From an uncultured Gammaproteobacteria bacterium (GTDB lineage: Bacteria > Patescibacteriota > Microgenomatia > UBA8517), in the NCBI GenBank assembly GCA_964540475.1, contig CAZIMC010000002.1:6709-70708 (forward strand): 64,000 bases of DNA, given 5' to 3'. A program made the position numbers and the translations under genes. Shown in pieces: positions 1 through 60,484 of this stretch (position 1 is its first letter; each line of letters starts with the position of its first letter). A model generated the notes under the pieces. It did not search any database and had not been told where the DNA came from. It saw only the letters and a program-made list of their open reading frames with translations.

Positions 1-1574
1 ATTGCCTGGCTATATGACTCTAAAGCAAACTGGTCGGCACCCTCAGCAAAGGCAATTATCGACTGATAAGTTTGTCCGAGAAGTTCCCAGTTACCGGCTC
101 GGAATTGATTGAGAAGTACTGTGGTCTTCGCTTCTCTAATTGCTTGCTGAATGAGTTGTGCAATTATGTTTCTATCTTCCTCTGTTATATTTTCATTTTG
201 CGCAATCACATTTGCCAATGCCAAGTTTATTTGAGTGTAGCTCGCATGGTAACGATCAACATATGGATTAAGCGTTATTGCCTCGCGCATTAAGTCGTAA
301 GTAAGCCTGCCATCATTTGTGGCTGCCGCATCAAGTGCTTGCTTAAACTTATTTTCAGCATAGACGGCTCTTGATCCAAAACCCAAGAAAAGTACTACGA
401 GGACTAATGCAGGAGCTGCAATCAAAAATGAGGGAGCCTTTGACGACTTGGTGGATGACTGACTATACATAAAAGCTGAAAGTTGTATAGCTACTGGTTC
501 TACTTTCATATTTATCGCCAGAACCACAAAAAGGACAAATAAAAGCGATAAGTTCGCAGGAAAGAGAAGTAGCAGTACAGAAATTAGAGCCAAGGAGACA
601 AGGGGTAATTCATTCCTTCCTAACTGATATCCAACCCTTTCTTTAAAAAGGCTTCTGACCATCTTGAAAACCTTGAAAGCAATAAGAAGAAATGCTGCAA
701 ATCCCAGTAACCCAACTTCAGTGAGAAGGGTAAATGGCCAATTTCTTGCAGTCGTAAATCTAACTCCCCACATATCGGTGGAATTATAGGTAAAAGGTCT
801 AAACCTGTTAAAAGCAGTAAGATAGTTTCCTGGTCCAACTCCTAATACAGGAGTTTCTTTCAACGCATCAACTGATACACTCCAGGAGGTTTGAAAACTT
901 GCCAAGGCGGGTGTAGCACTTTTTCCGGGTAGCATATTAAATACCGAGAGAGCCAGACTTCCTGCAACTAAAATCATTGAAAGTGCGGCAACAGTCTTTT
1001 TGATAGGAGTTTTTTCCCTTAATACGATTTGAACCCCGAAAGGTATTATTGTTGCAAGAAATATTGCTTCGGGCAACTTACCTTCAAACAAGCTAAACTG
1101 TGGACTTCGTAAAAAAGCGGGTAGCTGGGGAATAGCAGAAAAGACATTAAAATATGTAAATATCGAGACTAACGAAACAAGTGCACCTGAGAAGAAAAGA
1201 AGAGTGGAAATCTTTTCTTTGGTAGCGGTGGCATTTAAAAGGAAGTATAGAAGTATTAGTGAAATAATTGCAGTTGCCGTCCCTGGGAACAAAAATGCCT
1301 CCATTTTGTTTGGAGTCCTTAGTAACGCTGAAATGATATAGGAGACCGCAAGAAGTAAGAGGGGGAAATCTATCGGACTTGTGCCAATCTTAAACTCTCC
1401 TTTTCTTAAGGTTATTATAGCTTTTGCTAATACGGCCAGGCTGACACCAAAGCTCAAAAGTACAAGCTTGGGGAATTCAAGAAAATTAGTGAAGGCAGTG
1501 CTAACAAACAAAGGAAGCAAAAAAACAATTGCTAAAAGTATATACTCCTGGACAGTTTCAAGTATTTTAGTCAT
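1..1574 (-). CDS. O-antigen ligase-like (Wzy_C) polytopic membrane protein with C-terminal TPR-like region. C-terminus runs off the window start. It is missing from the ORF track because there is no in-window stop.
   Basis: Hand translation of the minus strand from ATG at 1574 gives an uninterrupted frame of about 525 aa. It has around 12 hydrophobic segments and the Wzy_C-like motif ARNWPFTLLTEVGLLGFAAFLL, and is a paralog of 58436..60484. Confidence 0.6.
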   Translation of the reverse strand, partial: MTKILETVQEYILLAIVFLLPLFVSTAFTNFLEFPKLVLLSFGVSLAVLAKAIITLRKGEFKIGTSPIDFPLLLLAVSYIISALLRTPNKMEAFLFPGTATAIISLILLYFLLNATATKEKISTLLFFSGALVSLVSIFTYFNVFSAIPQLPAFLRSPQFSLFEGKLPEAIFLATIIPFGVQIVLREKTPIKKTVAALSMILVAGSLALSVFNMLPGKSATPALASFQTSWSVSVDALKETPVLGVGPGNYLTAFNRFRPFTYNSTDMWGVRFTTARNWPFTLLTEVGLLGFAAFLLIAFKVFKMVRSLFKERVGYQLGRNELPLVSLALISVLLLLFPANLSLLFVLFVVLAINMKVEPVAIQLSAFMYSQSSTKSSKAPSFLIAAPALVLVVLFLGFGSRAVYAENKFKQALDAAATNDGRLTYDLMREAITLNPYVDRYHASYTQINLALANVIAQNENITEEDRNIIAQLIQQAIREAKTTVLLNQFRAGNWELLGQTYQSIIAFAEGADQFALESYSQA

Positions 1575-1691: not shown

Positions 1692-4600
1692 CTATTCTTC
1701 CGCCGAGTCTAGGTCAATTACCCACCAATTAAATTCCACATCTACATCAAGAACGTTGCTAAAGCCTACAATGAAAAAGCCTTCGCCCTTGGCTTTTACA
1801 TATAGTACTCGGTTTTTTGTCGTAGAGGTGGGAGTTACATAGACTAGGGTTTTATCACTGACGTTTTCGTTTCTTACGATAATTTCATTAAGGCCGGCTG
1901 CGACAGTTGCTTTTCCGGCGGATGCATTACTTTCTATGATTTGTTTTGTGGCCAGGGAGGCAGAGGGGCTAGCAATATCGGCCGCAATAATGAGTTTTTG
2001 GGTCTGAACTTGTCTGAATTCAGCAGAACCGGAAGCATCGATTGCTGCATCGGTCCCAAAGAATGCATTCTGTGCATGGATATTTCCGGTTAAGTATAGA
2101 TTGCCAAAGATTTCTACATCACCATTTGTGTTTATTCTTACCTTACCTGCCATAAGGTCGATTGGAGCAAGAGCCAGGGATTGTAGTGATAAGGGAGCAA
2201 AAAGAGTATTAATACTATTGTCCTGTGAACTTATTACCATATCCGTACCGAAGGCTAGTGAAGTAGAAACTGACATACTGAAAAAAGCCGCCTGATCTGT
2301 AACAAAGAGGTGGTTGAGTGATAAGCTTGATAAATTGTTATATGTAGAATCAAGGTTGTTGTCGGTTGCAACCTCGTCAGTACCCACTTCAGTGGTTTGT
2401 GCCAATCCAGACAGAAGTTTTTGATTAAATTCTATCTCCTTCAGTAGATTTTCGATCTCCAATATTTTCTCCTTGGTAAGACCATCTGGGCTTTCAACAA
2501 AATTTGCAATAACCCTGTCAGCATAAATTGTTCCCGCAATTGTGGCGTCGTTACTTACTGCTAACTGGTTACTGTTTACAGTTCCGGAAAGTGTCGCGTC
2601 GGCTGCGGATATGCTACCCGCAAAATAGGCGTTACCCCGTGTGTCTATGCTAGATACCTCCACTTGGTCAGTATTTTGAACTACAAACCTTGACTCAGGC
2701 TCTAGTTCAGAAGATTCCAATCTGACTACCAAATCCTGACCACTGTTGGGGGTTATGAGTGCTGTTTTAACACTTGGCGTAACAAGACCGGAGGAAATAA
2801 GCAGATTATCAACTGTTGCCGTTGCTATATAAGAAGACTCGGCCACTAATTTTTTTGTCACCAAAGTTCCCGCAGTTATATTGGTGGTTATGATATCCAG
2901 AGCAATCAGGCTTTCTTCAATCGCTATTTTGGTTGCGGTGATTGTGCCAGCCTTAATGTTCTCAGCAATAAGATTCGCCGCAACCACGCTTGCAGCGATT
3001 ATCTTTTCTGTGAATATGTGAGAGGAAGCTATCACTCCCTTTTCCACCTTCTCATCCAGCTCCTGAACTGCTTTTACTAATGGGACTACTAAAGACGCAT
3101 AATCAACCCCCTTTATATCGTGAGCTATATATTGGACTGCTTCCGGGAAAACATTTTCTACATTTTGGGCAATAAGCCCTAGATTGCTTCGTTGGTTTCG
3201 TGTGGGATCTATCCAGCTATAAGTAACTGCTTCCAAAGACTTAATTTTGGTTAGAGCATCCTCCACGGGTGCAATATTTTGCTTAAGCCTGGAATCCGAG
3301 GCACAAGTAACTCCAGCCCCATCTCCAATTACGCAAGTTGTTCCCGAACCATAAAAATATGCATCTCCGTTATTTTTTATTTCGAACTTTGTCTCACCGG
3401 CTACCGAGGCGGTTAGGGGAGAGTTACTCCCAGTTTCATTAAAGACAGCCAGTGCAATGCTTTGTGTGGCAGTTCCCTCTATTGTGATCGGGTTTAGAAA
3501 GCTGGAAGTTGCTCTTATAGTAAAGTTGTTCTCGATTGAATTTCCCAAAGTCACATTTCCGTTTGCCTTGAATGTTTCGCCAACTGTCAGGTTATCTCTT
3601 ATTAATACATTACCTTTGGGAACATAGATGGCATAGGAGTCAGGCAAACCACCACTTCTTGTTACCACCAAAGTGTTAGTTGCAGAACCCGCTTCCTGTT
3701 CAATCTCATTTAGATCAAGAACTAGAAGGTCGGATGTGGAGGGGTTCATATCCTTTGTTATATTTTTACGTATTAAAGCATAGTCGTCAGCCAGTTGATT
3801 TATTTCAAACCGCCCCTGGGTTTGGTTATAGCCGGTAATATTTGCCAGCCCGCCACCGCTATCGAAGCGAACACTTTCTCCAATTCTCAGATCTCCAGTA
3901 AGGTTGACATCAAAAACTCCTAGGATGCTACCAGCCATACTCGTGTTTCCATTAGCATCGATTTGAAACTTCGTTTCGGGATCTGACCCGGTTTGGAATA
4001 CTAAGAGATCGTATGTACCACTGTCGTTGCCAACATATCCATAAAATAAGCTTCCGGAATTAAGATTTGCCGCTGCAGCTCCAAATAGATTACCTTCTTC
4101 ACCCTCTAAAATAACATTCAGTTTACCCTTCCCATCTGGGTTTAACGTAATATCACCGTCCGAAGCATCAGGGGTTGACAGAACGAGTTCTTGCCCTTGA
4201 AGAAGAAGGGCTTGATCGCTTACAATTCCGGGAGCATCACCTTCTAATTTGATTACACCTGCCTCAGAATAAACCCTAGTAAGCGCTTCTTGGTATGCAC
4301 CCAAAACACTTGTAGACCCAGACGGTATTTGCTCAGAGCTTAGGATGTCTTCAGGTAGAGTGGGTGTTGGCGTGAAGAAATTTTCGTTATCAAGGAGTAT
4401 AATTCCGGTTCCAACAATCAGCACCAAAACCCCGCCGCTAAAAAGAGCCTTAAATAAGCTTGACGCCTTTTTCCTGCTTTCCGGAAATACCACTGTGGCT
4501 TGTGGTGTAAGCTCAGGTTTAATTACCGCGTCTCTTGCGGTTATTTGAAGTGTAATGTGATTTTTTCGTGCCCAATCTAGGAACTTTTTGATGGACACGG

Positions 4601-5165
4601 CTTTTCGTTGGGCGGTCGAAGCAGAGAAGCTGTTTTCAAGATATGCCCTGTAAGCTGTAAGCGTCCCCTCTGATACTTTCAGATGACCCAGCCAGGCGAG
4701 GAAGTGGCGCACATCCGAAACGTAATTTTTAATTGTATTTTTAGAAACACGAAGTAGAGTTAAGTGGGTCTTAAAGCTGCCGATAATGCTCTCAAAGTCG
4801 TTTTTGTGCGGCAAGACGCTTAGGTTTTGTAGTCCTTGCGTAAAATCTGTATCCACCAACTGTCTGTTTACCAAAAATCGGGACAAAGCTCTTAGGGTTG
4901 AAAGTCTCCGGTTTATGGTTTTAATGGGGGTGTTAAGTGTAAGTAAGTGCTGCTTGTAATCCTTTGATATGTTTGGGTGTATAAAGGGAATACTTTCAGT
5001 AAAACTGTCTACAAAGACGCCATCCTGTCTTATTTTGTCAACAAACCACTGGGCGAAATGGTTTGCGTCCGACTTGTAATTTTTAAGTGTCATAAAACTT
5101 CTACCCGAGTTATCCAAGTCGAGGATAAAGTTTGTTAGTGTGGGGTCAATTGCTGAATTTTTCAT
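1692..5165 (-). CDS. Giant membrane-anchored surface protein. It has two N-terminal tyrosine-recombinase-type core-binding (SAM-like) domains, one TM helix, a beta-rich fibre-like ectodomain, and an internal Peptidase_S74 (intramolecular chaperone / autoproteolysis) motif.
   Basis: 1157-aa ORF. N-terminal repeats LKNYKSDANHFAQWFVDK and IKNYVSDVRHFLAWLGH resemble the phage-integrase N-terminal SAM-like domain. TM helix GGVLVLIVGTGIILL. SDSRLKQNIAPVEDALTKIKSLEAVTYSWID...GLIAQNVENVFPEAV matches the S74 self-cleavage consensus. Confidence 0.7.
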   Translation of the reverse strand: MKNSAIDPTLTNFILDLDNSGRSFMTLKNYKSDANHFAQWFVDKIRQDGVFVDSFTESIPFIHPNISKDYKQHLLTLNTPIKTINRRLSTLRALSRFLVNRQLVDTDFTQGLQNLSVLPHKNDFESIIGSFKTHLTLLRVSKNTIKNYVSDVRHFLAWLGHLKVSEGTLTAYRAYLENSFSASTAQRKAVSIKKFLDWARKNHITLQITARDAVIKPELTPQATVVFPESRKKASSLFKALFSGGVLVLIVGTGIILLDNENFFTPTPTLPEDILSSEQIPSGSTSVLGAYQEALTRVYSEAGVIKLEGDAPGIVSDQALLLQGQELVLSTPDASDGDITLNPDGKGKLNVILEGEEGNLFGAAAANLNSGSLFYGYVGNDSGTYDLLVFQTGSDPETKFQIDANGNTSMAGSILGVFDVNLTGDLRIGESVRFDSGGGLANITGYNQTQGRFEINQLADDYALIRKNITKDMNPSTSDLLVLDLNEIEQEAGSATNTLVVTRSGGLPDSYAIYVPKGNVLIRDNLTVGETFKANGNVTLGNSIENNFTIRATSSFLNPITIEGTATQSIALAVFNETGSNSPLTASVAGETKFEIKNNGDAYFYGSGTTCVIGDGAGVTCASDSRLKQNIAPVEDALTKIKSLEAVTYSWIDPTRNQRSNLGLIAQNVENVFPEAVQYIAHDIKGVDYASLVVPLVKAVQELDEKVEKGVIASSHIFTEKIIAASVVAANLIAENIKAGTITATKIAIEESLIALDIITTNITAGTLVTKKLVAESSYIATATVDNLLISSGLVTPSVKTALITPNSGQDLVVRLESSELEPESRFVVQNTDQVEVSSIDTRGNAYFAGSISAADATLSGTVNSNQLAVSNDATIAGTIYADRVIANFVESPDGLTKEKILEIENLLKEIEFNQKLLSGLAQTTEVGTDEVATDNNLDSTYNNLSSLSLNHLFVTDQAAFFSMSVSTSLAFGTDMVISSQDNSINTLFAPLSLQSLALAPIDLMAGKVRINTNGDVEIFGNLYLTGNIHAQNAFFGTDAAIDASGSAEFRQVQTQKLIIAADIASPSASLATKQIIESNASAGKATVAAGLNEIIVRNENVSDKTLVYVTPTSTTKNRVLYVKAKGEGFFIVGFSNVLDVDVEFNWWVIDLDSAEE

Positions 5166-5721
5166 TTATTATTGTCAGGCACGAATTACACAGATTACAC
5201 TGCTTATACCATTAAAAATTGACGGCTTAGTTATGTCAATGGTATTTTACACGCACGGGGCTAGCTTGGACTAATTACTGTTTTCATGCATCCTTATAAC
5301 ACAATTACCGCATAAATGTCACGCACGAGTAGGCTATTTTTACCATGACAGATTCGTCCTATAAGAACGTAAGATTGCAAAAGTGAGCTAATGTTTTCGT
5401 GCCTATTTCTACCATTGCGGAATATTGCGGTAAATGATTTCCGCAGGCATGTTGAAGCTGCAATCCGATAGCTATGCTACTAATTGGTGTGCTAAAGTGT
5501 AATTAGCAGACTGCTAATTTGAGTGATAGGAATTTTAACCAGTATTTTGGCCCGTGTGGTGGGCTATTTGTATTGCTGCTAGTTACTTATATTTTATTAC
5601 ACTAAAGACGTTTGCTTGAAGAGTTTACAGAACCTGGCTACTGGTCAAATAGTCACTATAATTGCTATTATTATTTTAATCCAGGCTCTACACTTTCTAA
5701 TTGCCAGCTAATAATCATACT

Positions 5722-5729
5722 TGTATAAT
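5722..5729 (+). promoter_or_regulatory. Extended -10 (TGtTATAAT) 8 nt upstream of the leuS ATG, suggesting a leaderless or near-leaderless leuS transcript.
   Basis: tgtataat at 5722-5729 and ATG at 5738. No SD sequence lies between them. Confidence 0.3.
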
Positions 5730-5737
5730 TTACAAGT

Positions 5738-8659
5738 ATGGTGAGCAAAAATATTACCTACGATCATAGGTCAGTTGAGGCTAGATGGCGGGATTACTGG
5801 GACAATTCAGGACTATACAAAACTGATCTGAATGCTTCGAGGGGACGTTTTTACAATTTATGGATGTTCCCGTATCCTTCCGGGGAGGGTCTACATGCCG
5901 GGCACGCTTTTGCTTCAACAGGTAGCGACATTTACGGCCGTTTTATGAGAATGAAAGGTAGAGAAGTGTTTCAGCCAATCGGCTACGACTCATTTGGCAT
6001 TCATTCTGAAAATTTTGCGATCAAGACAGGTGAAACGCCTCAAATAATGCTTACACGCACAACTAAGCACTACGAAGCACAGTTAAGAAGCCTGGGCCAC
6101 GGCTATGATTGGAGTAGAGTGTTGAGTACTTCTGATATAGATTATTATAAATGGACACAGTGGCTATTTGTCGAAATGTTTAAGGCTGGCCTTGCATACA
6201 AGAAAAAAGCTAGCGTTAATTATTGTCCTTCGTGCAAGACGGTGTTGGCAGACGAGCAGGTAATGACGCCAAAGCAGGCTGGGAAAGAACCCAAAGACGC
6301 AAGGGGTAATAGGGTTTCTGGAACTGATGATACCCGAGTTTGCGAGCGATGTGGTACGGTGGTCCAAAAAAAAGAATTGGATCAGTGGTTTTTTAGGATT
6401 ACCGACTATGCAGACCGGCTACTTTCTGGTTTAGATAAAATTGATTGGAGCGAGCGCGTTAAGATTGCTCAAAGAGAGTGGATAGGGCGGTCCGAGGGGC
6501 TTCGGATCCAATTCCAAATTACAAATTCCAAATTACAAATTCCGGTGTGGACTAAGTTTTGGGAAACAATATATGGGGCTACTTTTCTGGTTGTTGCACC
6601 CGAATACGCACAAAACGAGCTTGTCCACTTGATTCCCCAGGAAAATAAAAAGAAAGTTCTTGAATATATCAAAATGTCTCTTAGTAAGTCAGAACAGCGG
6701 AGGAAAGAAGAGGCAAAAGAAAAAACCGGAGTGTTTACAGGAATTTACGCTGTAAATCCGGCAAATGGTCAAAAGATCCCTGTTTGGGTTACCGACTATG
6801 TGTTATTGGGTGTTGGAACGGGTGCTGTAATGGGAGTTCCTGCGCACGACAAGCGCGACTTTGAATTTGCAAGAAAATTCAACTTGAGACTTCTCCCTGT
6901 TGTCAAACCTAAAGATAGCGCATATAGAAGCTATTTGATGGGTGCAAAAGATATATCAGATAAAGATCTGGAAGATATCAAAGTAATGCTTGTCGAGACC
7001 GATAAAGACGGAGACAAAAAGCTTATCATACCTTCGGATTCACTTGCTGAATATAAAAAGCTTATAAAAGAGAAGTTAGACTTTGGATTTTGGAATGAAG
7101 TGGTGGGAGATACTGTATGGTTTTGCTTTAAAGATAAAACTGGTAATACAACAGAATATATATTATCAGAAAATAATATGTCAGAAATTGCTAAAAAATG
7201 TTCTGAGTTTAACAACGATCCGCTTGAAAAAACAGAGAACCTGTGGCTCTATTTAGCAGAGAATGATTGGTATCAGCCACTCATTGTTCAAGAAAATGGC
7301 GGGGAGTTAATTAACTCAGGGCGGTTTGATGGCATGTCCGCCTGGGGAGAGGGTAAGAAAAAGATGGCTGAGTGGATGATTAAGGAAAGTTTTGCCGAGT
7401 GGAGCACGACTTACCATTTACGAGATTGGTTAGTAAGCAGACAGCGCTACTGGGGGCCTCCGATTCCAATGATCTACTGCCCGAAATGCGCCAAGGAGGG
7501 CAGGAGCTGGCTTAGTCAAAATGAAGCTAACGTTAGGAAAGATCAGACAGACTGGACTCATGCGGGTTGGTACCCTGAAGAAAATTTACCTGTCATCTTG
7601 CCAGAAATGGATAACTATCAGCCCTTAGGTACCGGCAAAAGTCCTTTGGCATCTGTGCCTGATTTTTATGAGGCTAAATGTCCTTACTGTGATGGCGATG
7701 CTACTCGCGAGACAGATGTTTCAGATACATTTGTTGATTCCGCGTGGTATTTCTTAAGATATCCGAGTGTTAATGCAGAAAGTAATAGTAAATTACCCTT
7801 TGATCCAGGAATAACAAAGAAATGGTTACCAGTTTCACTATACTTTGGCGGTGCCGAACATTCAGTGCTGCATTTGATGTATGCCCGTTTTGTAACAATG
7901 ATGCTTTATGATTTGAAGCTAGTTGATTTCGAGGAGCCTTTCCCGAAGTTTTTTGCCCACGGTTTAATGATCAAGGACGGTGCAAAGATGAGTAAATCCA
8001 GAGGAAATGTGGTTAACCCGGATGAGTATATTGAAAAATATGGCGCAGACACCTTGAGACTTTACACCATGTTTATGGGGCCAATGGATGGATATCCGGA
8101 TTTTCGTGACAGTGGGATTGAGGGCATGAGGAGATTTATTAATAAGGTTTATAAACTTTTCGGTGAAGCATTGGTGGAGGAAGAAGCGAATGAAGTAATC
8201 ACAAAACTGCATCAAACCATAAAAAAGACTACCGAAGATATTCAAGGTTTTAGATACAATACCGCAATTGCGTCAATTATGGAATTGGTAAATCTTATCC
8301 AGGTCAAAGGTACTTCAGAAAATACACTAAATGTACTAGCCAGACTCCTGGCGCCATTCACCCCGCACTTAGCCGAGGAATTATGGCAAGAAGTGTTGAA
8401 GCAGAGCGGGTCAGTTCACAATGCAAGCTGGCCAGAACACAATCCTGAATTGATAAATGTGGATCAAGTTGAGCTTGTAGTTCAGGTAGACGGAAAAGTT
8501 CGTGCCCAATTAATGGTAGGCATTAATCATTCCAAGGATCGTGACTTTGTATTCGATTTAGCCAGAAGGGAGCCTAAAGTCGTTAAATGGCTAGAGGGTA
8601 AAGAGGTCAAAGATGAGATATTTATTCCTGAAAAGCTCATTAACTTTGTTACTAAATAA
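5738..8659 (+). CDS. leuS: Leucyl-tRNA synthetase
   Basis: HAGH (HIGH) motif near the N-terminus and KMSKS motif (KMSKSRGN), 973 aa, class I LeuS architecture with editing insertion. Confidence 0.95.
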   Translation: MVSKNITYDHRSVEARWRDYWDNSGLYKTDLNASRGRFYNLWMFPYPSGEGLHAGHAFASTGSDIYGRFMRMKGREVFQPIGYDSFGIHSENFAIKTGETPQIMLTRTTKHYEAQLRSLGHGYDWSRVLSTSDIDYYKWTQWLFVEMFKAGLAYKKKASVNYCPSCKTVLADEQVMTPKQAGKEPKDARGNRVSGTDDTRVCERCGTVVQKKELDQWFFRITDYADRLLSGLDKIDWSERVKIAQREWIGRSEGLRIQFQITNSKLQIPVWTKFWETIYGATFLVVAPEYAQNELVHLIPQENKKKVLEYIKMSLSKSEQRRKEEAKEKTGVFTGIYAVNPANGQKIPVWVTDYVLLGVGTGAVMGVPAHDKRDFEFARKFNLRLLPVVKPKDSAYRSYLMGAKDISDKDLEDIKVMLVETDKDGDKKLIIPSDSLAEYKKLIKEKLDFGFWNEVVGDTVWFCFKDKTGNTTEYILSENNMSEIAKKCSEFNNDPLEKTENLWLYLAENDWYQPLIVQENGGELINSGRFDGMSAWGEGKKKMAEWMIKESFAEWSTTYHLRDWLVSRQRYWGPPIPMIYCPKCAKEGRSWLSQNEANVRKDQTDWTHAGWYPEENLPVILPEMDNYQPLGTGKSPLASVPDFYEAKCPYCDGDATRETDVSDTFVDSAWYFLRYPSVNAESNSKLPFDPGITKKWLPVSLYFGGAEHSVLHLMYARFVTMMLYDLKLVDFEEPFPKFFAHGLMIKDGAKMSKSRGNVVNPDEYIEKYGADTLRLYTMFMGPMDGYPDFRDSGIEGMRRFINKVYKLFGEALVEEEANEVITKLHQTIKKTTEDIQGFRYNTAIASIMELVNLIQVKGTSENTLNVLARLLAPFTPHLAEELWQEVLKQSGSVHNASWPEHNPELINVDQVELVVQVDGKVRAQLMVGINHSKDRDFVFDLARREPKVVKWLEGKEVKDEIFIPEKLINFVTK
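6509..6544 (+). repeat. In-frame tandem repeat (about 14-nt unit caaattccaaatta x2.5) inside leuS, encoding IQFQITNSKLQIP.
   Basis: ccaattccaaattacaaattccaaattacaaattcc read directly from the sequence. Confidence 0.8.
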
Positions 8660-8703
8660 TACCGATTGCGTGGGCTTAAATCTTTCCTATATGATGATAG
8701 TTG

Positions 8704-9357
8704 ATGGGAAGTTCCGAATCGGGCTTGAGTGAACTTTGGGAAAAGCTTCAGGGTATATTCTTCAAATTCAGGTTCTCCATCATTGTAACATTCATGGGGC
8801 TTATCTTGGTGGGTTTGGGGACGTTTTTCGTGAAAACTGAGGGTGAAGTATCGGGCGACCGTGTAGAGGTCCTTAAAAGTGCCACAGAAAGTCAAGAGAG
8901 GCAAATATTCGTTGAGGTTTCCGGTGCTGTTCAAAAACCTGGCGTTTACAGTTTTGACGGGTTGGCTAGAGTAGAGGATGCATTGGTGGCAGCGGGCGGG
9001 TTTTCAGAGAAAGCCGACCGGCAGTGGGTTGATAGAACTTTGAATCGAGCAAGTAAGTTGGTAGATGGTCAAAAGATCTACATACCTCATGTTAGCGAGC
9101 AGTCTTTGGTTTCAAGTGCTAATAATCAGGTGGTATATCAAAATGGATCATCCACTTTTGGAGCTTCCGATGGAGGACTAATCAATATTAACACTGCGAG
9201 CTCAAGTGAATTACAATCATTGAATGGAATTGGCCCTGCCTACGGCCAAAAGATCATTGATCAAAGACCTTACTCAAATATAGATGAGCTGTTAACTAAA
9301 AAGGTTATCCCTAAAAATACTTACGAAAAGATAAAGGATAGAATTTCTGTTTACTGA
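8704..9357 (+). CDS. comEA: ComEA-like competence protein (TM anchor plus SLBB and helix-hairpin-helix DNA-binding domain)
   Basis: C-terminal ININTASSSELQSLNGIGPAYGQKIIDQRP is a HhH motif. There is an N-terminal hydrophobic segment. Confidence 0.8.
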   Translation: MGSSESGLSELWEKLQGIFFKFRFSIIVTFMGLILVGLGTFFVKTEGEVSGDRVEVLKSATESQERQIFVEVSGAVQKPGVYSFDGLARVEDALVAAGGFSEKADRQWVDRTLNRASKLVDGQKIYIPHVSEQSLVSSANNQVVYQNGSSTFGASDGGLININTASSSELQSLNGIGPAYGQKIIDQRPYSNIDELLTKKVIPKNTYEKIKDRISVY

Positions 9358-9416: not shown

Positions 9417-10478
9417 ATGTACCGCATTTTCTTCTATGCATTTTTACTTACTATCATTGTAGTCAGATTTATAATGGTTCGGCCGGTTTATAAGGACGGT
9501 GATTTTGTGCGAGTTACCTCAAAGGTTAGGACACCTCCGACATACTATGAGGATTTTCAAGGCGTGTCTGTCGCCGGGTTAAGGACCTATCTGCCGCTGG
9601 ATCAGGAAATTTCATATGGCGACTTTATAGTGATAGAAGGTTTAGTAGAAGATAACAAAATCAAAAAGCCTCAAGTAATTAGCATTAGAAAGGCCGAAGG
9701 ATTTTTAGTTGGCTTAAGAAGCTTAATTCTTAACTTTTTTAACAAATATTTGCCGCAGGATCATGCGGCATTAATTGCAGGCATAGTATTGGGGGATAAA
9801 GGAGGCCTAAGTGAGGGTTTTTCCGACAAACTAAAAGCAAGTGGCACCATACATGTAGTTGTAGCATCAGGTCAAAACGTCACATTTGTGGCAGCATTTC
9901 TTGTTGCAATAATAACAATTGCACTAAAAAGAAGCATTGCTATACCTTTTGTTATAGGCGGGATTTTTATCTACAGTGTTTTGGCGGGTTTTGAACCACC
10001 AATTGTTAGAGCTGCCATTATGGGAACCTTTGCCTTTGTTGCTCAGGAATTCGGGCGTATATATACAACTTGGCACGCGCTTGTTTTGACCGCATTGGGT
10101 ATGTTGGTAATAAACCCGCTCTGGTCAGTCGATCTTGGTTTTATCCTTTCGTTTGTGGCTACAGTGTCAATTTTACTGTTCCATTCACGAATTAATAAAA
10201 AACTACTTGGACTGCCCAACTTCTTTCGAGAAGGTCTATCATCATCTTTTGCTGCTCAAATTGGGGTAACACCAATTCTTTTTGTCACTTTCGGTAACTT
10301 CAACATTCTTTCGCCAATAATCAATGCGCTTATTCTTTGGACTATTCCACTGATAATGAGCCTCGCAGGTTTGGCAGCCTTAACTTCTTTGTTGTCGGGT
10401 AGGTTGGCTAGTCTAATTCTATATTTAACATATCCTCTGACAAGCTGGTTTATATTTATTGTTGAACTGTTTAGCTAG
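9417..10478 (+). CDS. comEC: ComEC/Rec2 N-terminal competence (membrane channel) domain. It is in the same frame as the next ORF, separated only by an in-frame TAG.
   Basis: DHAALIAGIVLGDKGGLSEGFSDKLKASGTIHVVVASGQNVTFVAAFL competence-domain signature. Polytopic. Confidence 0.8.
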   Translation: MYRIFFYAFLLTIIVVRFIMVRPVYKDGDFVRVTSKVRTPPTYYEDFQGVSVAGLRTYLPLDQEISYGDFIVIEGLVEDNKIKKPQVISIRKAEGFLVGLRSLILNFFNKYLPQDHAALIAGIVLGDKGGLSEGFSDKLKASGTIHVVVASGQNVTFVAAFLVAIITIALKRSIAIPFVIGGIFIYSVLAGFEPPIVRAAIMGTFAFVAQEFGRIYTTWHALVLTALGMLVINPLWSVDLGFILSFVATVSILLFHSRINKKLLGLPNFFREGLSSSFAAQIGVTPILFVTFGNFNILSPIINALILWTIPLIMSLAGLAALTSLLSGRLASLILYLTYPLTSWFIFIVELFS

Positions 10479-10481
10479 AGA

Positions 10482-11369
10482 ATGGAGAGATATTGGAAAA
10501 TTGTCTTTGGGTTATTATTGCTCACGGCCAGTATGGTCTGGATTTCAGTATTAGTAGTTCCAGACAAAACATTTAAACTTATTGCCTGCGATGTAGGACA
10601 GGGTGATGCCATTCTTGCTGTTTACGGAGCAAATCAAATATTAACAGATGGGGGGCCGGGGAGTAGCGTAATTTCTTGTCTAGAAAAATACATGCCGTTT
10701 TATGATAGAAAAATCGAGCTTGTGGTTTTAACACACGCAGACCGTGACCATTACGGGGGATTGGTACATGTGTTTAAAAGATATGAGGTAAATACTTTAG
10801 TGGTAAGTAGTGTTGATTCTGGCAGTAGTGGATATGAAGTGCTAAAAAATGCCGTAGGGGGTAGTGCTACGCGAGTTATATACCCGGAAGAAGGGATTAC
10901 TGTCAGGTTGGGAAAGATGCATTTAGATATAGTCTATCCAAATGATTTGGCGTTGCGAGAAGAATATTCGCAAGTATTAGGTGCATCAGTACTTGAAGGA
11001 AAAACAAACGAAAATTCGATAGTTACTTTACTCTCATTCGGGGATTTTGATGCCTTATTAACAGGGGATATTGGTCCCAATGAAAACGATATGGTTGCCG
11101 ATAGAATCTTAAATAAGTATGCAAGCAAAACGCTCGAATATATCAAAGTGCCTCACCATGGCTCTAAAAATGGTTTGACTATCAAACTACTAGATGCAGT
11201 GAAGCCTAAACTAGCAGTAATTTCATCTGGTAAGGGAAACTCCTACGGTCATCCACACGCGGAGATTGTGGATATGTTAACCAAACATAGAGTTCAGATA
11301 TTAAGAACAGATGAACTTGGCGAAATTGTGTTGGAATCTGATGGAAGGCGAGTTTGGCTATCAAATTAA
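10482..11369 (+). CDS. comEC: ComEC C-terminal metallo-beta-lactamase domain
   Basis: CDVGQGDAILAV and HADRDHYGG MBL motifs. Same reading frame as 9417..10478. Confidence 0.8.
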   Translation: MERYWKIVFGLLLLTASMVWISVLVVPDKTFKLIACDVGQGDAILAVYGANQILTDGGPGSSVISCLEKYMPFYDRKIELVVLTHADRDHYGGLVHVFKRYEVNTLVVSSVDSGSSGYEVLKNAVGGSATRVIYPEEGITVRLGKMHLDIVYPNDLALREEYSQVLGASVLEGKTNENSIVTLLSFGDFDALLTGDIGPNENDMVADRILNKYASKTLEYIKVPHHGSKNGLTIKLLDAVKPKLAVISSGKGNSYGHPHAEIVDMLTKHRVQILRTDELGEIVLESDGRRVWLSN

Positions 11370-25619: not shown

Positions 25620-25911
25620 AGTTAATAGGATTGCTGAGAAGGAGCACAGTAGGTTTTTCTGGTGGCCATAGAGAGAACTGGTGGTTGGTGCAAACCAGTC
25701 GTACAGAAAAAAGCGAATTACACTCTGGAGCTGGTTTAAAGTAAATTAAACCCGGGTCGCCCGTAATAGCAAAAGGCGTGTCGCGCGAGTGATAAGCCCG
25801 AAAAGGTTAAGATGGTAACATTTTAACGAATCAAGGTGGTACCGCCTTAGAATGAAGGCCCTTGTTTGAACCTAGCATGTGGGTTCAAACAAGGGCCTTT
25901 TTTGATTTTAT
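25620..25911 (+). promoter_or_regulatory. Structured non-coding leader element L2, paralog of L1. It shares the GCAAACC-containing hairpin, the AAGGTGGTACCGCC-TTAGAA box, and a terminator hairpin of different sequence but the same position (covariation).
   Basis: ggtggtaccgcc at 25836-25847. Hairpin aaggcccttgtttgaacc...ggttcaaacaagggcctt plus U5 at 25855-25903. ATG at 25912. Confidence 0.55.
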
Positions 25912-26841
25912 ATGCCAGAAAGAATAAAAGACAAACAGGAACTGAAAGATATGTTTGTGTCTCAACCGACAATTGGGACAATTCTGCGTGTGTTGGATAA
26001 TGAAGTATACAGAAATTCGCATTTAGAAGAGCGTTTGGGATGGGTGGGAATATCTGGTAGTAAGGCTAGACATGCTGGGCTTGAAGGAAAGAACGGGGTG
26101 GTGAGTGACGAAGACTTGGTTATTATCCTAAAGGGATCTTCACAAAATGACCCATTAAACATGCAAGCTTATGAACAAGTCCTTGATTGTATTAATCAGG
26201 CAACGAAAATTATGGTTGAGGAAAAGGGTATTATTCCTGTATATGCATCAACAATCAGACTGGAAGATGCGCAAATGGCGCTTGCTAGACTGATTCATGC
26301 AAGTGGTCAGATAAGGATGATACACTCTCTAATTTATCCGTCTCCTGAGGCAGTGGTTGCGTTTGAACCGCCGCTTCTGGCACGCAATCTAGTAGGCCAA
26401 GCCCTGACTCTTTGGGGTGATGAAAGAATAGCAGAGGATGTAAACCGATCAGCCAGAAATGGTGCACGCGTAGAAAACATAAACTTGACGATAGGTGGAC
26501 TTGATGGAATCAGTGATAATTTTAGAATGCTCAGAACAAATAGACATGTCCTGCCGGCTCTATTCTTGGGCCCGCAGGCCGTGCATGTTCTTGACTACAG
26601 TGTAAAATGGGCAATGGCTCAAGTTGTAGAAAAAGCTGGTGGAGCAGAATGCGCAACTTGGGGTGAAATAATAGATAATTTTCCCTCTGAGGAGGGCGGT
26701 CAATTGTTGATAGAGGTAGTAAAAAAGATTAGACTGCTTCGGGCCCAAGAGGAACATGTCGATTTGGATGAATTAGAAAATCTATATAGAGAGGTAATTT
26801 CCTTGTGGCCACTATTTACCTCTATTAGAAGCGGAAAGTGA
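25912..26841 (+). CDS. Pol-beta-superfamily nucleotidyltransferase domain protein (309 aa). It resembles the ANT/AadA-like or CD-NTase-like GS...DxD architecture. Substrate unknown.
   Basis: GISGSKARHAGLEGKNGVVSDEDLVIIL fits the hG[GS]-x9-13-[DE]h[DE]h NTase active-site motif. Confidence 0.55.
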   Translation: MPERIKDKQELKDMFVSQPTIGTILRVLDNEVYRNSHLEERLGWVGISGSKARHAGLEGKNGVVSDEDLVIILKGSSQNDPLNMQAYEQVLDCINQATKIMVEEKGIIPVYASTIRLEDAQMALARLIHASGQIRMIHSLIYPSPEAVVAFEPPLLARNLVGQALTLWGDERIAEDVNRSARNGARVENINLTIGGLDGISDNFRMLRTNRHVLPALFLGPQAVHVLDYSVKWAMAQVVEKAGGAECATWGEIIDNFPSEEGGQLLIEVVKKIRLLRAQEEHVDLDELENLYREVISLWPLFTSIRSGK

Positions 26842-58435: not shown

Positions 58436-60484
58436 TTACATATTTTTAATTTCTTCCAAAAAATCTTTAATGCCTGTATCTTTTGGATCAATCTCTGTTA
58501 GCACATATTCAAGAAGTTTTATGGCTTCAGCCCTTTCTCCTTTATCGGCAAGCAAGGCAGCAAGAGTGAAATATCCCTCTTTATAATTAGGTTTAATAGT
58601 AATAACTTCACGAAGTAATGGTTCGGCAGTATCATTTTGTCCAATCCTTAAATAACTTAATGCCAGGTTAAACTTAATTTTTGCATCGGTCGGTGCTAAT
58701 CTATCAGCCTCCACCAATGTGCGATTGGCTTTTAGAAGATATGAGTTATCAACCATCGCGAGTTTGGTGAGCGAACCGGCTGTGTCTCTTTTGATATTCA
58801 AGTTGCGGGACGAAAGCCTTTGGGCGGTACTCATGTGCCTCTCAGCTAATTGGGCCAGTTCACTTGCCTCATCGCTTCTCTCGTTTTCGTGAAGGATCAA
58901 GGCAAGGTTTGTGTCTGCTTTTGCTAGCTCACTTATGTAAAGAGCCTCCCGGGGAGACAAATAAATTGCTTTTGTGAGAAAATTTCGTGCAGCCAGGTAA
59001 TTTTGGCGCTCGTTTTCAAGTTTACCCTTGGCATACAAAGTGTCTGCATACCAGTATTTTGAAATTGCGAATAGTGCATAGAGCATAGTGCATAGGACGA
59101 TAAGCAAGAAGGACTTTTGAGAGGCAGCCAAGCTGGAAATATTATTACTCTGCGCTATGGGCTTTGCGCTACTTTCTATAGTCGATGACATTGCCGGGAA
59201 AAGGAAAAACATTAGAGCTACGGTCACGACGGAGAAACCGAAAAAATTGGTAATTAAGATGCTCGCAAATCCCGCCAATAATCCTGCCTTCCAAATTTGC
59301 GAATCTTCCGAAGGATTGGTTGCAGATGGTTGTTGTTTCTTTCCTTTACTAATCTGGTATAGGCAAAATATTATTAATAATATGTAGCTTATAATTCCAA
59401 CCGTGCCTGTTGTAGCTGCGAAGTTTAAGTATTCGTTATGGGCTTTGTTGTATAAGAAGTCCCACTCAGACACCAGGTTATGTTTTACTGGTCTGAACTG
59501 ATAATAAGAAAAGGCAAAGGTTTCAAGGCCACTCCCGAAAATCGGATAGTTTTTCCAGACATCAATTGCTCCTTTCCATACAATTTTTCTTATTTCACCG
59601 GATTCGGTTCCGCCGGTTTCAAGAACTGTACCGGAAATTGGAGTAGCGGGCTGTTGTTTGTTTGTGACATTTGTAATTGATGGTGTCCAGGGGGTACCTA
59701 TTAACAGTATAAGAATTATGAATGATGAATTATGAATGATGAAAGATTTGAACGCATGTATTTTGTCTTTCCAAATTACATACGGCCAGAATATAAGCCA
59801 TGCCGCGGTTAAACCCAACATTCCGGAGCGGGACTTGGTGTATAAAAGTGTCAGAAAAAAAACTGCAGATAGAACTGTCCAGAGGTAATGCTGAATTTTC
59901 TTTTTGGAGCTCTTCATTGAAAACACCCAAGCAACAGGAATCAAAGAGACCAGCCAAGCAGCAAGCCAGTTAGGCTGACCCATGGTAGAAAAAATTCTGT
60001 TTTGTACGTCCTGAACCCACAAATTTTTATCTATACCAAAATGTTGTAGAACTCCATATGCACACACAACAAATCCTGATGCCAAAAGTGTCTTAAGCCC
60101 GGTTGTAGTTTTTTGCCTGTCGATATTACTTACATAAGCCCAGTATAGAAGGGAATAGACAATTACTGATGCGAGTCCGCCATGGAATCTGGAGTAATAT
60201 CCTAAAAATGACGTGCGCGTGTCTATTGATAAAATAGCTGATATAAATTGAGAGACTAAAAATAGTAATAAAGGTATATCCAATATTGTGCGACGAAATA
60301 CGAATTTATTCTCAATAACCATTATTCCTACCCAAGAAGCAACAATAACTGAAGTAAATGCATAAACAAGAACCAGTTTATTGAATTCAAAAATTTCAGA
60401 GCTAAAGGGATACAAAATTAAGGGAACAAAAAAAAATATACCCAGGTAGCAATAAGTAATTACCTTTTTGAATAACATTACCAT
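58436..60484 (-). CDS. O-antigen ligase-like (Wzy_C) polytopic membrane protein with C-terminal TPR repeats. It contains two in-frame tandem duplications.
   Basis: NKAHNEYLNFAATTGTVG Wzy_C motif. TPR-like C-terminal third. Repeats at 59043-59095 and 59712-59750. Confidence 0.75.
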   Translation of the reverse strand: MVMLFKKVITYCYLGIFFFVPLILYPFSSEIFEFNKLVLVYAFTSVIVASWVGIMVIENKFVFRRTILDIPLLLFLVSQFISAILSIDTRTSFLGYYSRFHGGLASVIVYSLLYWAYVSNIDRQKTTTGLKTLLASGFVVCAYGVLQHFGIDKNLWVQDVQNRIFSTMGQPNWLAAWLVSLIPVAWVFSMKSSKKKIQHYLWTVLSAVFFLTLLYTKSRSGMLGLTAAWLIFWPYVIWKDKIHAFKSFIIHNSSFIILILLIGTPWTPSITNVTNKQQPATPISGTVLETGGTESGEIRKIVWKGAIDVWKNYPIFGSGLETFAFSYYQFRPVKHNLVSEWDFLYNKAHNEYLNFAATTGTVGIISYILLIIFCLYQISKGKKQQPSATNPSEDSQIWKAGLLAGFASILITNFFGFSVVTVALMFFLFPAMSSTIESSAKPIAQSNNISSLAASQKSFLLIVLCTMLYALFAISKYWYADTLYAKGKLENERQNYLAARNFLTKAIYLSPREALYISELAKADTNLALILHENERSDEASELAQLAERHMSTAQRLSSRNLNIKRDTAGSLTKLAMVDNSYLLKANRTLVEADRLAPTDAKIKFNLALSYLRIGQNDTAEPLLREVITIKPNYKEGYFTLAALLADKGERAEAIKLLEYVLTEIDPKDTGIKDFLEEIKNM

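Follow-up and report, generated by a model that had tools for sequence, protein, structure and literature searches.

On the minus strand of the 64,000-nucleotide stretch of contig CAZIMC010000002.1 analysed here (the window), positions 1692..5165 hold an uninterrupted frame of 1157 codons, which runs from an ATG to a stop codon and encodes a protein of 1157 amino acids (aa). Sequence comparison places this protein, referred to below as the fibre protein, in a large Microgenomates-wide family of giant surface proteins anchored at their N-termini. The taxonomy of its relatives points to a Woesebacteria-like member of the Microgenomates as the source. As judged from the aligned members, the family proteins start with a SAM-like module and a transmembrane (TM) anchor, continue through a base that is conserved and a centre that varies, and close with a conserved C-terminal module (the C module). 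In the fibre protein the centre carries a phage-type Peptidase_S74 domain. We think it reasonably probable that the product is a membrane-anchored surface fibre or adhesin, probably trimeric, whose S74 domain aids assembly and then cleaves the chain between Ala622 and Ser623. A search with the hidden Markov model (HMM) of the family found a single copy in the window, and no earlier description of the family was found in the literature, within a reach that excluded most subscription journals.

Architecture of the fibre protein

The N-terminal part of the protein contains the SAM-like, or core-binding, domain of tyrosine recombinases twice in tandem. Pfam reports Phage_int_SAM_1 in two stretches of the open reading frame (ORF) (E=1.6e-11, 44.7 bits against a cut-off of 22.3), and the module keeps the family motifs KTINRRLSTLR and TIKNYxSD. 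The NCBIfam XerC and XerD models match only over their first ~90 positions (~5-96 of ~290), at aa 20-114 and 133-205, and their equivalog scores of 43-45 bits are about one-seventh of the cut-offs of 330-335. No Pfam match to the Phage_integrase catalytic domain (PF00589), with its R-K-H-R-H/W-Y active site, was found in the ORF at E<=1. As the XerC/XerD matches are confined to the N-terminal part and Phage_integrase is not matched, the protein is no recombinase. An AlphaFold2 (AF2) model of aa 1-290, built from a 72-sequence alignment, contains two helical bundles (helices 8-100 and 121-201) with a predicted local distance difference test score (pLDDT) of 90-98 across aa 10-205. Domain 1 scores 94-98, and helices C-D of domain 2 (aa 169-201) still reach 90-94 although they lie outside the coverage of the alignment. 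When this model was searched against the PDB with Foldseek, the best matches were without exception either core-binding domains (Cre, XerA and lambda Int) or integrase N-terminal domains that stand alone (among the latter 3nrw, TMt 0.77, 2.7 Å); the small size of the domain keeps the E-values weak. A trace of the SAM-like domain's tandem duplication is also seen in the DNA, namely a direct repeat of 36 nucleotides (nt) at 4701-4736 and 5055-5090, with 72% identity and a spacing of 354 nt, or 118 codons.

The module is followed by the sole strongly hydrophobic segment of the protein, aa 240-258 (ALFSGGVLVLIVGTGIILL), with a Kyte-Doolittle (KD) value of 2.45. The N-terminal 240 aa carry a net charge of +14 and the two parts of the ectodomain -26 each. 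Hydropathy and charge together fit an N-in/C-out (type-II) topology, which would leave the SAM-like module in the cytoplasm and an acidic ectodomain of 899 aa outside. The protein is rich in Ser, Thr, Asn and Gly and nearly free of Cys, and the GC content of its gene equals that of the rest of the window.

Within the ectodomain, Peptidase_S74 (PF13884) matches aa 623-677 (E=1.2e-16, 61.1 bits against a cut-off of 22), covering positions 1-57 of the 58 in the profile. The motifs SDSRLK and GLIAQ begin at aa 623 and aa 663, the Ser623/Lys628 dyad is intact, and SDSRLK aligns with the SDERLK (8jov) and SDRRIK (6f45) of solved tail fibres. Twenty tail-fibre or baseplate families of PHROG match the protein, and each of these matches ends at aa ~709, some 5-25 positions short of the end of the phage profile. 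Therefore ~447 extra residues follow and the domain is truly internal. Immediately upstream, the ~135 residues before Ser623 match 712 phage records in tblastn searches at no more than 33% identity. In a viral fold library, many phage fibre models bearing an intramolecular chaperone auto-processing domain (the ICA domain) match by Foldseek at probability 1.0 and 28-38% identity. The AF2 model used here, a monomer of aa 596-1157 (562 aa), has a mean pLDDT of 56, with 70-80 in the S74 region and less than 50 in the fibre parts; such poor confidence is to be expected when a probable trimer is modelled as a monomer. It places a helix at aa 689-711, at the C-terminal edge of the S74 domain.

S74 domains trimerise and self-cleave immediately N-terminal to the Ser of the dyad (PMC8326128), whose motif is SDxxxK (PMC10769870, PMC8326128). 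In MYRF the cut falls between P586 and S587, and S587/K592 are equivalent to S911/K916 of endoNF (PMC8326128). The wider analogy is with endosialidase, T5 pb1, MYRF and Bdellovibrio Bd3182, in which S74 trimerises, acts as a chaperone for the fibre upstream of it and cuts afterwards. By analogy to the MYRF site, the predicted scissile bond would lie between Ala622 and Ser623. A cut at this position would give fragments of 622 and 535 aa, the first holding an ectodomain of 364 aa and the second consisting of the ICA domain and the C module.

The C module is recognised in the fibre protein by the family HMM at aa 757-1156 with E=2.8e-157, a value to be read with the fact that the model was seeded with the window's own C-terminal sequence. 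Its signature stands at the very C-terminus (...LQSLALAPIELMAG...LVYVTPTS...FNWWVI). In the AF2 model the last ~80 residues (aa 1075-1152) form a beta-sandwich with pLDDT above 90. Foldseek neighbours of the aa 596-1157 model include C-terminal parts of phage tailspikes and depolymerases, pyocin fibre domains and a trimeric lectin, and we tentatively assign these matches to the modelled beta-sandwich. A search of the C module profile against PDB sequences found nothing. The most conserved stretch in the whole family lies in this module, at aa 986-1010 (nt ~2136-2210, APLxLQSLALAPIELMAGKV). It is also the second most hydrophobic segment of the fibre protein (KD 1.44 at aa 988), below the TM threshold.

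Much of this layout had been proposed in a sequence-only reading of the ORF. Two SAM-like domains in tandem, the lack of a recombinase catalytic domain, a single TM helix, a fibre-like ectodomain of about 900 aa and an internal S74 motif are all borne out by the profile, hydropathy and model data above; the S74 match exceeds its Pfam cut-off and the Ser/Lys dyad is retained in alignment. The domain had been looked for around aa 540-640, slightly off its span of 623-710, and the C-terminal fragment had been put at about 500 aa, against the 535 aa given here. That fragment would be no arbitrary tail, being made up of the ICA domain and a module found family-wide.

A Microgenomates-wide family with a split or fused module

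An exhaustive profile search returned 388 representatives (50%-identity clusters) at E<=1e-30, with lengths from ~1000 to 5657 aa; of the 150 listed representatives, nearly all have the profile's C-terminal end aligned to their own C-terminus or close to it. Scanning a single genome for each species gave 153 loci. Those with sensibly named hosts come from Candidatus Woese-, Gottesman-, Shapiro-, Pace- and Blackburnbacteria, Microgenomates and Patescibacteria. The idea that the protein is an unusual one-off is thus not upheld. The term "giant" holds only in a relative sense, the fibre protein being among the smallest members of its family. The base is common to giants that have no S74 domain, such as those of loci L004 (1571 aa) and L006 (5657 aa). 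The 1571-aa protein shares with the fibre protein aa 163-201 (as its N-terminal ~40 residues), 298-414 (base) and 787-1152 (C module).

By the same comparisons, the S74 domain is an optional, phage-derived cassette. It was found in 29 of the 168 family representatives retrieved and at 21 of 80 genome loci, lying 280-660 aa from the C-terminus with one outlier at 810 aa, and the C module frequently starts a few residues past its last helix. Wherever the motif region of an S74-bearing representative is on record, it contains the S...K dyad with SDxxxK spacing. Relative P0003 has a Beta_helix/NosD (pectate-lyase-type) domain ahead of S74 and so carries a whole tailspike-like cassette. The centre of the family proteins thus appears to be a slot for receptor-binding or depolymerase cassettes of phage type.

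The cytoplasmic module is not always part of the giant protein. In L001, L003, L004, L006 and L008, a separate gene for ~165-195 aa lies immediately upstream of the giant gene. According to Pfam, its product has one full SAM-like domain and profile positions ~3-35 of 83 of a second, and the giant proteins start at positions ~40-83 of 83 and continue into a linker and the TM helix. The fibre protein is continuous across this split point and represents the fused form. Its two tandem domains are present as had been proposed, with the qualification that they are the fused version of a module divided within domain 2 in roughly half of the relatives resolved at this end: of the genome loci whose N-terminus could be resolved, 11 show the split form and 9 the fused one, which has either two or one SAM-like domains. 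Moreover, 71 stand-alone small SAM-like proteins were found. One alignment wrongly placed the half-SAM N-termini of P0002 and P0003 on helices C-D of domain 1, from which it follows that the SAM-like repeats are homologous.

The small and giant genes overlap by 17 nt in the +1 frame in L001, and through a TAATG in the other frame in L003. Overlaps with differing frame offsets indicate that the split genes are real and translationally coupled, without a shared frameshift. A programmed frameshift was considered for the split genes and rejected, as frame offsets vary between relatives and every downstream gene has its own ATG. The recurrent fusion constitutes "Rosetta stone" evidence that the small and giant proteins work together, and the position of the split suggests that they associate by completing a four-helix bundle. 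At L008 (Roizmanbacteria, GCA_016214055.1), a 55-aa ORF at 8602-8769 stands between the small SAM-like gene and the gene for the 3227-aa giant; it has no counterpart in the other loci examined.

Two further observations concern the genomes that bear the family. Some have two members, including neighbours on the same contig, each longer than 3500 aa (CAZRJH010000004.1, with L006, L046 and L055; CAZRGC010000002.1, with L047 and L059; JBGQJK01, with L027 and L048). Many records of family-bearing metagenome-assembled genomes are titled "uncultured Gammaproteobacteria", "Pseudomonadales", "Methanosarcinales archaeon", "Caldithrix" or "Gemmatimonadota" (L012, L013, L015, L019, L023, L024, L031, L057, L075 and others). 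Such titles on loci of a Microgenomates-specific family probably reflect mislabelled or contaminated bins.

Table 1. Features of the fibre gene and its downstream neighbour, in window positions
Feature	Residues	Positions	Strand	Basis
Whole ORF: tandem SAM-like module (predicted cytoplasmic), TM helix, fibre-like ectodomain with internal S74, C-terminal module	1-1157	1692..5165	-	
SAM-like (tyrosine-recombinase core-binding) domain 1	~8-100	4866..5144	-	Pfam, NCBIfam, AF2, Foldseek
SAM-like domain 2, complete (Pfam profile 3-81 of 83)	~121-201	4563..4805	-	Pfam, AF2
Part that is a separate gene of ~165-172 aa in split relatives (domain 1 and helices A-B of domain 2)	1-163	4677..5165	-	Comparison with relatives
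Helices C-D of domain 2, conserved N-terminus of giant proteins in split relatives	164-205	4551..4676	-	
Single TM helix, RKK directly before it (positive-inside)	240-258	4392..4448	-	Hydropathy and charge
Membrane-proximal ectodomain base (DGSDGDITLNPDG... motif region)	~298-540	3546..4274	-	Common to S74-less giants
Phage tail-fibre-like segment just upstream of predicted cleavage site	~486-622	3300..3710	-	PHROG profiles, tblastn
Peptidase_S74 / ICA domain	623-710	3036..3299	-	Pfam, PHROG, AF2, Foldseek
Ser623 codon	623	3297-3299	-	
Lys628 codon	628	3282-3284	-	
Linker with AENIxAGTI-type repeats	711-756	2898..3035	-	Low confidence in structure model
Family-wide C-terminal module (~400 aa)	757-1152	1710..2897	-	Family profile, HMM
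Terminal beta-sandwich, last ~80 aa of C module	1075-1152	1710-1943	-	AF2
Downstream gene: polytopic membrane protein, Wzy_C-like core and TPR-like C-terminus, runs off the window		1..1574	-	

Genomic neighbourhood

The neighbours of the fibre gene in the window are genes for LeuRS, ComEA, ComEC (as Competence and Lactamase_B ORFs), ArgRS and an M16 peptidase, and relatives show the same order; no phage genes flank it in the window. ComEA/ComEC genes are nearby in the window and in L001, L003 and L006, and the ComEC neighbourhood is absent from L004 and L008. In the window, ComEC is encoded by two adjacent ORFs on the plus strand, one with the Competence domain (9417-10478) and one with the metallo-beta-lactamase domain (10482-11369). 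It is also split in L006, and L001 and L003 have two ORFs of which the Competence-adjacent one has no Pfam match.

The usual gene order of the family is the small SAM-like gene (or the fusion), the giant gene and a Wzy_C/TPR gene, and the window conforms to it. A Wzy_C/TPR homologue lies within 800 nt downstream at 27 of the 80 loci and within 10 kb at 49. The gene downstream of the fibre gene matches the HMM of the syntenic genes at E=7.6e-271, a partly circular result, the model including its own sequence. Wzy_C-type proteins include O-antigen ligases and polymerases as well as protein O-oligosaccharyltransferases, and it is a reasonable guess that the Wzy_C/TPR protein glycosylates the Ser/Thr-rich fibre or helps to assemble it. 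A second Wzy_C and TPR membrane protein is encoded at 58436-60484 on the minus strand (Wzy_C E=2.8e-17), adjoining no fibre gene; it is a paralogue of the one downstream of the fibre gene (family HMM E=9.4e-27).

Elsewhere in the family, the fibre locus in L004 (994-7478), L005 and L008 (1467-7336) is preceded by five or six genes without a Pfam match and a divergent small Big_1/Invasin_D3 protein, all of which might belong to this surface system as well. An AT-rich imperfect inverted repeat (1599-1680; 26-nt arms, 77% complementary, 30-nt spacer) lies between the fibre gene, which stops at 1692, and the Wzy_C/TPR gene, which starts at 1574; it may be a terminator or attenuator, or may be due to chance. 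At the other end of the gene, a non-coding gap of 570 bp (5166-5737), larger than most other spacings in the window, separates the divergent fibre and leuS genes; it contains several promoter-like sites and no Rfam match. Lastly, a full-length T-box leader (25627-25866, plus strand), which scores 105 bits where the gathering score is 93, is found a short way upstream of an ORF for 309 aa (25912-26841).

Function of the fibre protein and known counterparts

Under the surface-fibre reading that we favour, the part of the family proteins outside the cell would comprise the base, the variable centre and the ~400-aa C module ending in a beta-sandwich knob. In the fibre protein the centre would be a domesticated phage tail-fibre tip with its S74 intramolecular-chaperone domain. 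After export, S74 and the C module may align three chains with one another and assist folding of the upstream fibre. A cut by the Ser623/Lys628 dyad would then follow between Ala622 and Ser623, leaving a membrane-anchored fibre of 622 aa with an exposed phage-like tip and freeing the 535-aa C-terminal fragment, which could be either released or retained non-covalently. The fibre would probably bind glycans or proteins on the surface of a partner cell or of its own envelope, and the adjacent Wzy_C/TPR protein may glycosylate it or assist its assembly. On the inside, the tandem SAM-like module may serve as a cytoplasmic partner-docking device. In the split relatives a soluble protein of 1.5 domains would complete a four-helix bundle with the two N-terminal helices of the giant, and in the fibre protein the same module would be a single chain. 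Trimerisation, cleavage, surface exposure and binding are steps that we infer.

Several points weigh against this reading. The main unexplained one is that S74-less relatives keep the C module attached: the module might be the functional tip, in which case cutting it off seems counter-productive. It may be that S74 acts only in trimerisation, or that the two pieces remain associated. Host-specific adhesins, moreover, usually show the opposite of the pattern seen here, in which the distal end is conserved and the middle varies. The AF2 monomer models of the fibre parts have low confidence, as reflected in the mean pLDDT of 56. The topology is read from hydropathy and charge, and the split-domain complementation from gene structure and a single-chain model. 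Finally, the Wzy_C match of the downstream gene, which is partial in the window, is below the Pfam cut-off (E=7e-5).

The closest contender, unlikely in our view yet deserving serious weight, is an envelope scaffold, an S-layer-type coat or stalks, in which the C module would make lateral or outer-layer contacts, the Wzy_C/TPR protein would glycosylate the coat and S74 would be an interchangeable oligomerisation unit. Across one bacterial class the family occurs nearly universally, on the chromosome and in synteny, its acidic, Ser/Thr/Asn/Gly-rich and almost Cys-free proteins are conserved at both ends and variable in the middle, and its conserved neighbour is a glycan-handling membrane protein, all of which would suit a coat. 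However, the cassettes in the centre share homology with receptor-binding fibres of phages and, in the case of P0003, with a beta-helix of depolymerase type, modules that bind or degrade rather than form a lattice, and lengths of 1000-5657 aa fit a regular lattice poorly. A narrower departure from the surface-fibre reading, which we regard as rather unlikely, is that S74 does not cleave and is kept solely for trimerisation and folding, the protein staying in one piece. The covalently retained C module of S74-less members is in keeping with this, as is the finding that MYRF cleavage needs the correct trimer geometry and can be inhibited. Against it, the dyad is kept across very divergent members, which argues for selection on catalysis, and every S74 domain with an intact dyad that has been studied self-cleaves (PMC8326128, PMC10769870). 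It is hardly credible, and largely refuted, that the gene simply codes for the tail fibre of a prophage or tailocin, or that a recombinase fragment was falsely joined to a fibre gene during assembly. The strong PHROG tail-fibre and S74 matches would suit such an origin, and integrase-type domains and fibre genes both occur in prophages. However, the gene is flanked by LeuRS, ComEA, ComEC, ArgRS and Wzy_C/TPR genes in the same order as in distant relatives and by no phage genes, its GC content is that of its surroundings, and its phage matches do not exceed 33% identity. Its TM anchor and C module occur family-wide, across the 153 genome loci, fused N-termini are found in nine independent genomes, and its fused domain 2 is a complete and confidently modelled bundle. 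Nor were shufflon-type repeats found: a repeat search gave no suitable inverted or direct repeats and no tandem repeats, the sole direct repeat of note being the one left by the SAM-like duplication, and a shufflon or invertible segment was accordingly rejected.

The SAM-like module raises a different question, as the sequence-only reading had described the appendage as wired to a DNA-binding-type module. This description stands with regard to the fold, and DNA binding, signalling, autoproteolysis and episymbiotic attachment are suggestions at this stage. We consider it improbable that the module binds DNA and responds to the state of the fibre, either as a ToxR/CadC-like regulator or as a DNA tether near ComEA/ComEC. 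The true core-binding fold, the retained motifs and the net charge of +14 agree with such transmembrane coupling, as do the one TM helix that physically joins module and fibre, the partly detachable, soluble nature of the module in split relatives and the proximity of ComEA/ComEC in the window, L001, L003 and L006. However, that neighbourhood is missing in L004 and L008, and there is no known mechanism by which one TM helix would relay a signal from a fibre of more than 900 aa. Isolated core-binding domains, moreover, generally bind DNA weakly without the catalytic domain. With the SAM-like module (aa 8-201) and the ICA domain (aa 623-710) on opposite sides of the TM helix, a MYRF-like release of the cytoplasmic module is excluded. 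The fuller version, in which the module is a working platform for DNA binding or partner recruitment, mechanically coupled to the fibre through the TM helix and assembled on demand in split relatives, we hold to be quite improbable.

In function, the closest known system is the superfamily of mosaic adhesive trimer (MAT) fibres of Bdellovibrio bacteriovorus (Caulton et al. 2024, PMC10769870). This predator uses fibre adhesins with and without S74, and removal of S74, in Bd3182, is described as exposing a ligand-binding cleft (PMC10769870). Like the MATs, the present family consists of cellular, non-viral fibre proteins of bacteria living on other bacteria, with a conserved N-terminal part on the side of the cell, a mosaic of phage-like segments of beta-helical or fibre type, members with S74 (SDxxxK) and members without, and many paralogues or variants. 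Compared by description, MATs have a signal peptide and a beta-rich N-terminal domain of ~130 aa, whereas the family has an all-helical SAM-like module and a TM helix. The S74 domain forms the C-terminal end of MATs, and is internal here and followed by a conserved ~400-aa module; the host lineage is Microgenomates and not Bdellovibrionota. Outside S74 and the fibre segments no sequence relationship to MATs was detected, though the two sets of sequences were not compared directly. Phage fibres with a C-terminal chaperone (endosialidase K1F endoNF, T5 pb1/LtfA and GA-1 gp12; MEROPS S74, PF13884) are homologous in sequence and fold over aa ~486-710, with the dyad at the N-terminal and a helix at the C-terminal edge of the domain. 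Unlike them, the fibre protein is no part of a virion, has an N-terminal membrane anchor and continues for ~447 residues past the ICA domain.

MYRF (PMC3742443, PMC8326128) is likewise a cellular membrane protein, in which a domain of DNA-binding type occurs together with a single TM helix and an internal ICA domain. This ICA domain also has a Ser/Lys dyad and is not C-terminal either. The order of parts differs: in MYRF the DNA-binding domain precedes the ICA domain and the TM helix, and cleavage frees it, whereas here the sequence is SAM-like module, TM helix, fibre and ICA domain, so that a cut would part two extracellular pieces. Moreover, the DNA-binding domain of MYRF is of Ndt80 type, and the module of the fibre protein has the recombinase core-binding fold and would stay tethered. 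With the tyrosine recombinases themselves (XerC/XerD, Cre and lambda Int) that module shares fold and sequence family (PF02899, PF13495 and PF13102), here twice in tandem; unlike in them, it lacks a catalytic domain and is either joined to a TM helix or divided between two genes.

Microgenomates and other bacteria of the candidate phyla radiation (CPR) have very small genomes and presumably live in attachment to other cells, and to our knowledge almost nothing is known about their surface molecules. The gene of this family takes up to ~17 kb in genomes that measure ~0.8-1.2 Mb where contigs are chromosome-sized. Its position is conserved across the class, and it makes renewed use of receptor-binding cassettes from phages, among them a chaperone predicted to cleave itself and, in one relative, a depolymerase-like beta-helix. 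The share of the genome, the conserved position and the phage cassettes together make the family a prime candidate for an attachment or envelope apparatus, a parallel to the fibre adhesins described not long ago from the predator Bdellovibrio. As a kind, S74-bearing adhesins in the form of cellular, phage-like fibres are already known. The new traits are a recombinase-type helical module as the cytoplasmic foot of a surface protein, either in one chain or split in the middle of a domain, and an S74 domain in mid-protein, ahead of a conserved module. If the coupled platform were real, contact made by a surface fibre, for example with a host cell, would be linked to DNA events inside ultra-small cells, and these could be regulation or the handling of DNA taken up through the neighbouring ComEA/ComEC.

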